DNA of 50,299 nucleotides from Octopus sinensis. Its lineage: Eukaryota. Both the position numbers and the translations under genes were made by a program. The stretch lies in contig NW_021835207.1 of assembly GCF_006345805.1 (NCBI RefSeq), positions 1-50,299 on the forward strand, written 5' to 3'. Numbering within the stretch: position 1 is the stretch's first letter; each line of letters begins with the position of its first letter. Shown one piece after another: positions 4,488 to 43,383 of the stretch. Below the pieces are notes generated by a model. It had not been told where the DNA came from and did no database searches. It saw only the letters and a program-made list of their open reading frames with translations.

Positions 4488-4799
4488 GTGGAGGTGCAAT
4501 GGCCCAGTGGTTAGGGCAGCGGACTCGCGGTCGGAGGATCGCGGTTTCGATTCCCAGACTGGGTGTTGCGTGTGTTTATTGACCGAAATCACCTAAAAGC
4601 TTCACGAGGCTCCGACAGCGGGTGGTGGCGACCCCCTGTTGTACTCTTTCGCCACAACTTTCTCTCACTCTCTCTTCCTGTTTCTTGAGTAACGCTGCGA
4701 TGGACTGGCGTCCTGTCCATCTGGGAGGTGGGGAAAACACACGCCACAGAAACCGGGAAACCGGGCCCATGAGCCTGGCTAGGCTTGAAAAGGGCGCGA
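4488..4799 (+). mobile_element. tRNA(Arg-like)-headed SINE, family C, with V-domain-like tail and 13-bp TSD
   Basis: Head GGTGCAATGGCCCAGTGGTTAGGGCAGCGGACTCGCGG...GGTTTCGATTCCC; tail CTGCGATGGACTGGCGTCCTGTCCA; TSD CGATATACATATG at 4475-4487 and 4800-4812. Confidence 0.9.
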
Positions 4800-36066: not shown

Positions 36067-36375
36067 CGAGAAGTCAAAAGTTATCAGCACTTTCGCTATA
36101 ACTCATCTGTATTATTGTCGCACTTCCTTCTGCGCACGCGTGCTTATAGTTGCTACTATTGTGGTCAGGTGATCGAAGTTTGAGCCTGATCGCGCCATTT
36201 TTCATTTTGGCTTTACAAAGTTAATATGGCTGCTCAACTAGCAATGTACTCAAACTTCGATCTATATAAAGACCACAATAGTACGAACTATAAGCACGCA
36301 TGCGCGGAAGGCAGTGTGACAATAGTAAAGAAATGTTATGGTGAAAGCGTGGACGATTTTTGATTTCCCTTCGTG
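36066..36375. mobile_element. Mariner-like MITE with long imperfect TIRs
   Basis: TA-CGAGAAGTCAAAAGTTATCAGCACTTTCGCTATAAC... versus ...GTTATGGTGAAAGCGTGGACGATTTTTGATTTCCCTTCGTG-TA; arms homologous over about 120 bp. Confidence 0.7.
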
Positions 36376-36427
36376 TACATATATATATTGTGTGTATGTA
36401 GGTGTTTGCGCGCACGCGTATGGGTGC

Positions 36428-36462
<35 letters not shown>

Positions 36463-36663
36463 GCACCCATACGCGTGCGCGCACACCTACATACACACAC
36501 ACATATATATGTACACGAAGGAAATCAAAAATCGTCCACGCTTTCACCATAACATTTCTTTACTATTGTCACACTGCCTTCCGCGCATGCGTGCTTATAG
36601 TTCGTACTATTGTGGTCTTTATATAGATCGAAGTTTGAGTACATTGCTAGTTGAGCAGCCATA
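36225..36663. repeat. Near-perfect palindrome of about 440 bp centred on (AT)n
   Basis: 36225-36430 is the reverse complement of about 36459-36663 with only a few differences, mostly in the microsatellite parts. Confidence 0.95.
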
Positions 36664-36674
36664 ATATATATAAA

Positions 36675-41438: not shown

Positions 41439-41581
41439 TATATTATACTTTATTTTAATCAGCAGAAAATTCAACAAATCTGTTGCCGTACATATATATT
41501 ATATGTATGTATCTATCTATCTCTCTATCTATCTATCTCTCTCTCTCTCTCTCCATATATATAGATATCTATATTATATAT

Positions 41582-42096
41582 ATAGAATGGGTGTATTCTG
41601 TCAATCTACAAGAACGGACAGTAGGGGTACACACCGCTGTATAGCCCTAGGAAGCATCGTACACACCTCCTGATAGCTTTGAACACCTTTTTTCCCTGTG
41701 TCCTTATATAGACATACGAAGGGGAGACAAACACCCCCGGCTGCCGGAACTGCATCTATGGACAACCCGTTTTCAGGATCATTGTCCTTCATCGGCCTAG
41801 AGTAGCAGACACCGGTCAGCTGGTGATATTGGCCTCGACTTCGTAATTGTATATTCAGTGAAGTTTATTCACTGATTATCAAAATAAGAAATATTGAAAT
41901 TCTAAATCTCTCGTAGAGACATGTACGGTGGTGGGGCGATAGAATGGTTGTATACTGTCAATCTAACAAGAACGTGACAGTAGGGGGTACACCACCGCTG
42001 TATAGCCCTAGGAAGCATCGAACGCCTCCTGATAGCTTTGACACATTTTTCCCTGTGTCCTTATATAGACATACGAATGTAAAAACACCGACCGTA

Positions 42097-42097
<1 letters not shown>
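41582..42097 (-). mobile_element. Partial tandem (about 1.4 units, 357-bp period) HHR-bearing element; Penelope-pLTR or non-LTR retrozyme-like
   Basis: 41582-41720 is repeated at 41939-42077; HHR lies between the copies; (TA)n on both flanks; no credible coding capacity. Confidence 0.75.
41755..41801 (-). ncRNA. Type I hammerhead-like motif (U4C variant)
   Basis: Minus strand: TCTAGG-CCGATGA-AGGA(caatga)TCCT-GAAAAC-GGGTT-GT-C-CATAGA; stem I 5/6 paired, perfect stem II. Confidence 0.65.
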
Positions 42098-42127
<30 letters not shown>

Positions 42128-42420
42128 GAGGCATGTCCGTGTGCCTAGTGGTCAGATTGTTGCACTCACGATTGCAAGATTGTGGTTTCAATTCCTAGAC
42201 TGCTTGATGCGTTGTGTTCTTAAGCGAAACACTCATCTCACGTTGCTGTGTGACATCTAACGCATGGTACTTGGTGCATCTGATCAGGTAACATCGATCT
42301 CTTTGACAGAGTGAGCTAATGTGCAGTGCCTACATTTGACCACTATAAACAAATCATTTGTGAAGGCCGGTCGGCAAAAGATGAACTCTCATATGTTGCC
42401 TTCAGTTGGAGAGTCTCATG
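42128..42420 (+). mobile_element. Old tRNA-headed SINE
   Basis: GTGCCTAGTGGTCAGATTGTTGCACTCACGATTG...GGTTTCAATTCC head followed by TTGTGTTCTTAAGCGAAACACT. Confidence 0.7.
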
Positions 42421-42476
42421 TTAAACCTTTAATCCTTAAACATTTTTTCCTCTCTCCGTTCTTTTTCCTCATAGTA

Positions 42477-42512
42477 CTTTCTGCCGAAGATTGTAGGTCC
42501 GAAACGTCAAGG
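42477..42512 (+). ncRNA. Degenerate minimal hammerhead-like motif
   Basis: CTTT-CTGCCGA-AGATTGTAGGTCC-GAAAC-GT-C-AAGG, homologous to 24280-24317 within the repeat 42445-42602. Confidence 0.5.
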
Positions 42513-42734
42513 ACTTTGTATTCTTCCCGAGTGTTAATCTAATACACCTGCTTGTTGTTCTTTCACCTGTCCTCGTCTTTCGTTTTCTGTAAATTTGAAA
42601 TATACATATTGTCACTAGATGTGACTAGGGTGCTAAGAAACACCAACATTGCTAGAAATAAGAGCTAAACCGCCCTAATGTTCTAGTTAACGCACATGAA
42701 TGGAAAGTACGGAAAGTGCCGAACAATCAAACAG

Positions 42735-42785
42735 TCTTAACCGATGAGGAAAAGGAAATTGCCGAAAGTGAGGTCAGTATTAAGA
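42735..42785 (+). ncRNA. Degenerate hammerhead-like motif (U4C variant)
   Basis: TCTTAA-CCGATGA-GGAAA(aggaaa)TTGCC-GAAAG-TGAG-GT-C-agta-TTAAGA. Confidence 0.45.
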
Positions 42786-42843
42786 GTTCTCGATCGGAAA
42801 TTTTCGGACGATTATGGTCCCTGTTAGTGTATATGTCTTCATT

Positions 42844-43230
42844 AGGAGGCGCAATGGCCCAGTGGTTAGGGCTAGCGGACTCGCGGTCGTAGGATCGCGG
42901 TTTCGATTCCCAGACCGGGCGTTGTGAGTGTTTATTGAGCGAAAACACCTAAAAGCTCCACGAGACTCCGGCAGGGGATGGTGGGGATCCCTGCTGTACT
43001 CTTTCACCACAACTTTCTCTCACTCTTAATTTCCTGTTTCTGTGTACCTGTATTTCAAAGGGCCGGCCTTGTCCACTCTCTGTTCACGCTGAATATCCCC
43101 GAGAACTACGTTAAGGGTACACGTGTCTGTGGAGTGCTCAGCCACTTACACGTTAATTTCACGAGCAGGCTGTTCCGTTGATCGGATCAACCGGAACCCT
43201 CGTCGTCGTAACCGACGGAGTGCTTTAAGA
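42844..43230 (+). mobile_element. SINE family C with alternative tail and 13-bp TSD
   Basis: Head very similar to 4488-4685 but the tail differs; TSD ATATGTCTTCATT at 42831-42843 and 43231-43243. Confidence 0.92.
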
Positions 43231-43383
43231 ATATGTCTTCATTTATGTGCGCTAACTACAACATTACATCGATTTAGTTCTTATTTCGAGTAATGTAGGT
43301 GTTTCCTAAAACCCTATTCACATTTAGCGACAATATATTTCTGCTCTTTGGTGAAACATAACAAACTGCTGTTTATATTAATT

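Follow-up and report, generated by a model that had tools for sequence, protein, structure and literature searches.

Animal retrozymes are described as tandem units of 150-450 bp that carry type I hammerhead ribozymes (HHRs), have a GC content below 50% and possess no LTR, PBS or PPT (PMC7229834). According to Cervera and de la Pena (2020), they are heterogeneous in sequence, with Penelope-like elements (PLEs) as candidate mobilisers, and their sizes include 350-390 bp in Mytilus galloprovincialis, Rtz_331/353 in axolotl and 220-245 bp in Acropora (PMC7229834). They have been proposed to be non-autonomous PLE derivatives, among which an active retrozyme needs two HHR units and monomers are likely inactive offspring (10.64898/2026.07.22.740005). 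Canonical HHRs have a helix I of 6 bp and a helix II of 4 bp, while the corresponding lengths in the minimal HHRs of PLEs are 4-5 and 7-8 bp (Cervera and de la Pena 2014, PMC4209133). As for the PLEs themselves, Craig 2021 reports that they form partial tandems, that Hydra-1_Obim and the Octopus Naiads favour (TA)n, that the cephalopod Naiads are long inactive and have no canonical HHRs, and that non-autonomous forms with pseudo-LTRs (pLTRs) exist (PMC8557442). The PLE reverse transcriptase (RT) starts internally, favours AT-rich targets and accepts uncleaved RNA (Frangieh 2024, PMC11167929), and Penelope-like families have been recently active in O. vulgaris (PMC13282606).

The stretch of Octopus sinensis DNA analysed here, 50,299 nt in full and called the window below, is animal-type DNA rich in microsatellites and short repeats. 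At 41582-42097 it contains a 516-base non-coding insert, which corresponds to 1.39 tandem units, (357+139)/357. We regard this insert as a likely inactive offspring copy of a non-autonomous retrozyme-type element, likely pasted into (TA)n by the RT/endonuclease of a PLE, and give this reading a probability of roughly 0.57. The ends of the insert are direct repeats, R (41582-41720) and R' (41939-42077), which share 90.9% identity over 143 columns (E 2e-46) with a local alignment score of 228, compared with 45 as the best among 200 shuffles. Each repeat is 139 nt long and the period is 357 at both ends, so that the terminal redundancy of about 139 bp and the 357-bp period of about 1.4 units given in the initial annotation are both confirmed, the latter by the geometry of the repeats. 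Read on the minus strand, which is the ribozyme sense, the insert starts with a 20-nt 5' end segment, X (42078-42097), and continues through R', the upstream copy that forms a pLTR-like redundancy, and U (41721-41938), the 218-nt single-copy portion of the period, to R, the downstream copy at the 3' end, which ends 179 nt past the predicted ribozyme cut and whose outermost 3-4 bases are ambiguous with the TA tract. No further copy of the insert was found within the 50-kb window.

Several smaller features lie within these parts. U contains a perfect 8-bp hairpin with a 5-nt loop at 41855-41875, just as annotated before, and the repeat contains another 8-bp hairpin (41953-41982), whose CTGTCA...TGACAG arms (41955/41975), noted earlier for the repeat as such, are complete in R' only, since R has lost the T of the second arm. 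TATA-like octamers occur at 42060-42067 and, in R, at 41703-41710 (2 matches on the minus strand, 0 on the plus strand); they are weak and may have arisen by chance. Segment X is no more similar to 41721-41745 than shuffled sequences are (p 0.21), and a continuation of the period into X is not demonstrable. A part of X, 42086-42096, forms a 10/11 inverted match to 41923-41933 at the start of U. These two stretches are predicted to pair in the linear fold with probabilities of 0.92-0.96, closing the R' domain, and the match may come from the 5' junction folding back on itself or may be accidental.

An HHR between the redundant ends had been annotated without strand or position. It turned out that a type I hammerhead-like motif does lie there, at 41755-41801 on the minus strand, where a descriptor matches it. 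Helix I (41801-41796/41760-41755) has 5 of 6 Watson-Crick pairs and one G-A mismatch, the core (41795-41789) has a C at position 4, helix II (41788-41775) has 4 bp (4/4 pairs) and a 6-nt loop ending in GA, the hammerhead GAAA occupies 41774-41771, and the predicted cut falls after GUC at 41761/41760. These helices have the sizes expected of a type I hammerhead, about 6 bp for helix I and about 4 bp for helix II. The descriptor, which was composed after the motif was seen and left helix III free, matched none of 5000 shuffles of the insert and, with any one core mismatch allowed, none of 3000. With the same descriptor, 60 block-shuffled windows gave 1 match and the real window 2, and a looser descriptor gave 3 real matches in the window against a shuffle mean of 0.19. 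A type I fold beyond chance is therefore present between the repeats, but its core is imperfect and no Rfam hammerhead match was obtained in 41560-43000, in 41725-41845 or among the best 150 of the 320 Rfam matches of the window.

The motif departs from the consensus in three places. In the core, CUGANGA...GAAA...UH, C replaces U at position 4; helix I has its one mismatch; and helix III is disrupted, with a possible A15.1-U16.1 pair next to a mismatched pair and a GG centre, and a predicted probability of about 0, a mismatch for which one small indel would account. In the predicted ensemble, helix II (0.6-0.7) and distal helix I (0.9) are kept and the catalytic junction is lost, with probabilities of about 0 for A15.1-U16.1 and for the two core-proximal pairs of helix I. 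Because of the three departures and the lack of an Rfam match, this copy of the hammerhead is probably damaged and inactive. The U4C change reduces hammerhead activity, yet it is viable in one viroid (PMC3088659). By simple arithmetic, the 12-13 differences between R and R' per 278 nt lead one to expect about 2 changes in the 47-nt motif, so the family form of the hammerhead could be intact. A UAC bulge is also present on the 5' side of helix I, and loop II ends in purine-A, features that we take to match the usual contact between loop 1 and loop 2. Another cut register, which would put G at position 17, was dropped by eye, since helix I pairs poorly in it.

The hammerhead sits at the tip of an imperfect rod of 131 nt (41715-41845, minus strand), an extension of helix I whose base includes the first 6 nt of R. 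The rod has a predicted energy of -53.2 kcal/mol (z -3.98, a value that none of 200 shuffles reached, as against z -2.96 for the plus strand). When 41721-42077 is folded as a circle, the predicted z is -5.36 for the minus strand and -4.04 for the plus strand, and the other register of the circular unit gives -3.19 and -2.66 respectively (150 shuffles each). A stable self-paired monomer, as in non-LTR retrozymes, is thus predicted in both minus-strand registers, and the unit of 357 bp with a GC content of 45% lies inside the 150-450 bp and below-50% GC range of retrozymes, with only 1.39 units present. An 8-bp helix is predicted to tie the start of U to R' with a probability of 0.95-0.99 in the circle. 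As proof of a monomer this junction helix falls short of significance (p 0.03-0.18 for its longest match and 0.13-0.24 for its duplex energy); it is absent for R, and the energy per base has no peak at 357 nt. Consensus folds of the two sequences R and R' yielded too little covariation to be of use (0 of 38 pairs on the minus strand, 1 of 40 on the plus strand), and G-U counts did not separate the strands.

The earlier statement that the insert has no credible ORF is borne out. Its longest frame is 87 codons from stop to stop and has no Pfam match. We scanned 108 frames, namely 105 of the 173 high-complexity frames of the window and 3 from the insert, and none of them had a Pfam match above the curated cut-off (4 matches were weak); neither an RT nor a GIY-YIG domain, by which an autonomous PLE would be recognised, was found among them. 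A translated search for copies of the 87-codon frame gave no candidate, only 3 weak multi-stretch matches of 30-38% identity with a profile unlike that of DNA copies. Elsewhere in the window, the frame 73-480, which runs through a dispersed repeat, matches a hypothetical Argonauta hians protein at 80% across 29% of its length as query (E 7.8e-11), which points to an octopod host. The dispersed repeats of the window look like octopus SINEs, as we assume. A tRNA scan of the window returned 0, and a phage blastn of the sequence gave no match.

Direct repeats around a 218-bp non-coding interior are also what a small LTR element, either a TRIM or an LTR retrozyme with 139-bp LTRs, would have, and the plant LTR retrozymes and TRIMs share this arrangement with the insert. 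The TATA-like octamer in R and a G-rich stretch ahead of R' on the plus strand (purine fraction 0.65) agree with such an element. However, TG..CA ends are absent on both strands of the insert, no TGG-type PBS follows either 5' repeat, and neither a PPT nor a distinguishable TSD of 4-6 bp is present; 20 extra bases lie past R', and the ribozyme is of type I and located in the interior, whereas the plant elements have type III HHRs inside their LTRs together with a PBS, a PPT and a 4-bp TSD, none of which is seen here. We give the LTR explanation the slimmest chance of all those considered. The absence of ORF, LTR, PBS and PPT is what characterises non-LTR retrozymes. Helenus/Ajax (described in PMC10886601) were judged, from what that source gives, not relevant to the insert.

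To the right, the insert borders a perfect (TA)14 target tract (42097-42124); to the left lies a compound TA/TATC/TC tract (41502-41581) that ends in a short degenerate TA run. The (TA)n flanks of the initial annotation are therefore real, but only the right one is perfect, with 14 units, the left one being a degenerate and short run. Further left, between TA tracts, about 45 nt of unique sequence (41448-41491) with a 7-bp hairpin can be seen by eye, which is probably a fragment of another repeat. On the right, further repeats occupy 42128-42330, directly after the TA tract, and 42845-43240, of which 42845-43041 has an 88% copy at 4490-4685; we take both repeats to be tRNA-derived and SINE-like. 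No TSD can be distinguished from the TA repeats at the flanks of the insert, so the locus presents a partial tandem (pseudo-LTR) inside a microsatellite without a discernible TSD, the pattern of PLE-type insertion (cf. PMC8557442). Instead of a PLE, a LINE associated with TA or microsatellites, such as one of the Dong/R4 or RTE type, could have moved a non-autonomous 357-nt unit. Dong-R4 and RTE are listed as recently active in Octopus vulgaris (PMC13282606), and by eye no clear match to the 3' end of the insert was seen in the Naiad_Obim, Naiad_Ovul and Hydra-1_Obim excerpts of PMC8557442. On the other hand, the insert carries neither a poly(A) tail nor a simple-repeat tail of its own, and a partial tandem with a type I HHR combines traits of PLEs. 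The LINE explanation consequently seems very improbable to us, only a little less so than the LTR one.

The strongest of the rivals, which we regard as doubtful but worth serious attention, traces the partial tandem to an autonomous PLE of the Hydra or Neptune type that carries an HHR, two of whose 3' ends, each truncated on the 5' side, would now stand in tandem. A 357-nt cDNA would have been followed by a template jump to a 159-nt cDNA from another member of the family, and 357 would be a mere truncation point, neither a retrozyme monomer nor a circle. PLEs usually form partial tandems and are truncated at the 5' end, and in Octopus they target (TA)n (PMC8557442); one HHR per 3' end is what the insert would show, the difference between R and R' and the presence of X would be accounted for together, and the pairing at the junction is not significant. 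The GG-centred helix III could also be a damaged form of the 3-5 bp, short-loop helix III of Hydra elements (PMC8557442). Besides, two other HHR-like motifs in the window resemble PLE ends. The first one, at 42735-42785 on the plus strand and 650 bp from that of the insert, has 6 of 6 pairs in helix I, C at core position 4 and a helix III that could form 5 pairs, with one mismatch, about its GG loop, which is reminiscent of the Hydra-PLE type of HHR (PMC8557442). No significant rod accompanies this motif at 42741 (z -1.28), and it does not align to the insert past the core. The second, at 24560-24512 on the minus strand, has a canonical core and a long helix II region, lies 162 nt upstream of a TA run and is likely the 3' end of a truncated PLE. 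Of the 3 HHR-like motifs of the window, 2 thus have C at core position 4.

Against two PLE ends stand the helix I and II sizes and the long rod of the insert, which are of the canonical, retrozyme-associated kind and not of the minimal PLE type, the predicted good fold of the entire 357 nt, the absence of a coding remnant, and an HHR row of Hydra-1_Obim that differs by eye in the excerpt of PMC8557442. As a separate observation, a repeat of about 130 bp occurs in two copies, 42477-42602 (plus) and about 24317-24190 (minus), identical in 100 of 130 columns, with a minimal hammerhead-like core at its start and TA/CA runs at its end; this pair is likely another family of PLE termini.

Between R and R' there are 7 gap opens but no more than 5 mismatches, numbers that change to 8 and 4 when the alignment is global, and by eye the gaps lie mostly in base runs. 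Compared with 267 gap opens and 2956 mismatches pooled from 125 control repeat pairs in the window, which are not independent of each other, this is an excess of indels (p 1.5e-5), and the gap density of R/R' was reached by none of 121 other repeat pairs. If one circle had been copied, R and R' would have been identical at first and would later have drifted mainly by substitution; the indel-rich pair and the break of the period at X therefore favour two different units. We lean somewhat towards a template of two slightly different units, either in a multimeric transcript or through a switch to a second molecule, over a single circle. The circular or multimeric RNA of about 357 nt proposed at the outset accordingly keeps its multimeric form as the favoured one, while a single circle is disfavoured by the indels.

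The indels may have another source. A near-perfect palindrome of about 445 bp centred on (TA)n is located at 36222-36666, either a young fold-back insertion or a read artefact, and a diverged partial copy of its arm adjoins it on the left (about 36130-36220, by eye). The top miRNA-like Rfam matches among the best 150 of 320 of the window stem from this palindrome. Its arms have 3 gaps and 2 mismatches in 212 columns and are likewise richer in gaps than in mismatches, so local base-calling error may explain part of the R/R' indels. It could further be argued that a local duplication or a faulty assembly produced the whole redundancy around a single fragment with an HHR that lay between microsatellites: the differences are of the indel type that resembles long-read errors, and the locus sits between low-complexity tracts. 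Yet gaps are scarce in the other repeat pairs of the window (the 29 pairs with at least 87% identity have 32 gap opens over 4714 columns), 4-5 substitutions also separate R from R', and TA runs are found at both ends of the insert. The chance of such an artefact is slim in our judgement, slightly above that of a LINE. Heterogeneity of retrozymes has also been noted at the RNA level (PMC7761336). With a small chance, greater than that of an artefact, the insert would belong to an undescribed octopod retrozyme family in which C is natural at core position 4 and the units diversify through viroid-like RNA slippage, and would have captured two RNA variants next to each other; if true, the genome would offer evidence that an animal ribozyme circle replicates at the RNA level.

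For the preferred reading of an inactive retrozyme-type offspring, the steps would be as follows. A tandem array elsewhere would be transcribed, and a PLE protein would nick TA-rich DNA and start the cDNA internally, at a point of the RNA 179 nt past the ribozyme cut. Synthesis would copy R, then the uncut or re-ligated hammerhead and U, next the second repeat R', and would stop near the base of the long rod. The insert contains the intact cut site and ends 179 nt downstream and at least 317 nt upstream of it; since the cut site is spanned and both ends are far off, a linear monomer released by cleavage did not serve as template. Insertion by a PLE protein is likely, and a helper of the Hydra or Neptune type is likelier because the cephalopod Naiads are long inactive. 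With a single HHR, which cannot cut out a unit and is moreover predicted to misfold, the copy itself would make no circle. The retrozyme- or PLE-like character first assigned to the locus is thus retained in its helix sizes, period, fold, lack of ORF and LTR and TA target, and it falls short in having one damaged hammerhead, where an active retrozyme has two (10.64898/2026.07.22.740005).

Likened by description, the insert agrees with metazoan non-LTR retrozymes in its type I HHR, period, GC content, self-paired fold and absence of LTR, PBS and PPT, and indel-rich variants like R and R' are known in their families (PMC7229834). It differs from them in having 1.4 units only and one damaged HHR. 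It also resembles the solo or monomer retrozymes derived from PLE pLTRs, being sub-dimeric, readable as an inactive offspring and attributable to PLE-type mobilisation (10.64898/2026.07.22.740005). With the Hydra-clade (Hydra-1_Obim), Neptune and Naiad PLEs and Chlamys MRC1 it shares the (TA)n target and the pseudo-LTR partial tandem, and with Hydra PLEs an HHR near the 3' end, but unlike these PLEs it has no ORF, and its HHR helices differ by eye from those of Hydra-1_Obim (all from the excerpts of PMC8557442).

The class of the insert is already known from mussels, which are molluscs, and from salamanders, and it is the host group that would be new. Molluscs are absent from the survey by Li, Clavereau and Pollet, which covered 31 vertebrates, 3 insects and 1 anthozoan (10.64898/2026.07.22.740005). 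No cephalopod retrozyme was found in the literature searched, though the supplementary invertebrate lists of PMC7229834 and 10.64898/2026.07.22.740005 may hold an octopus entry. As a single damaged copy of a known class, the insert has a modest meaning. The indel-rich pair of R and R' makes it cheap to test whether a circle or a multimer was the template. If our reading is right, animal retrozymes extend to octopods, and the junctions of the insert keep a footprint of movement, in which the internal start at a distance from the ribozyme cut, the TA target and the partial tandem are traits of PLEs. Such a footprint bears on the question of which autonomous element mobilises animal retrozymes.
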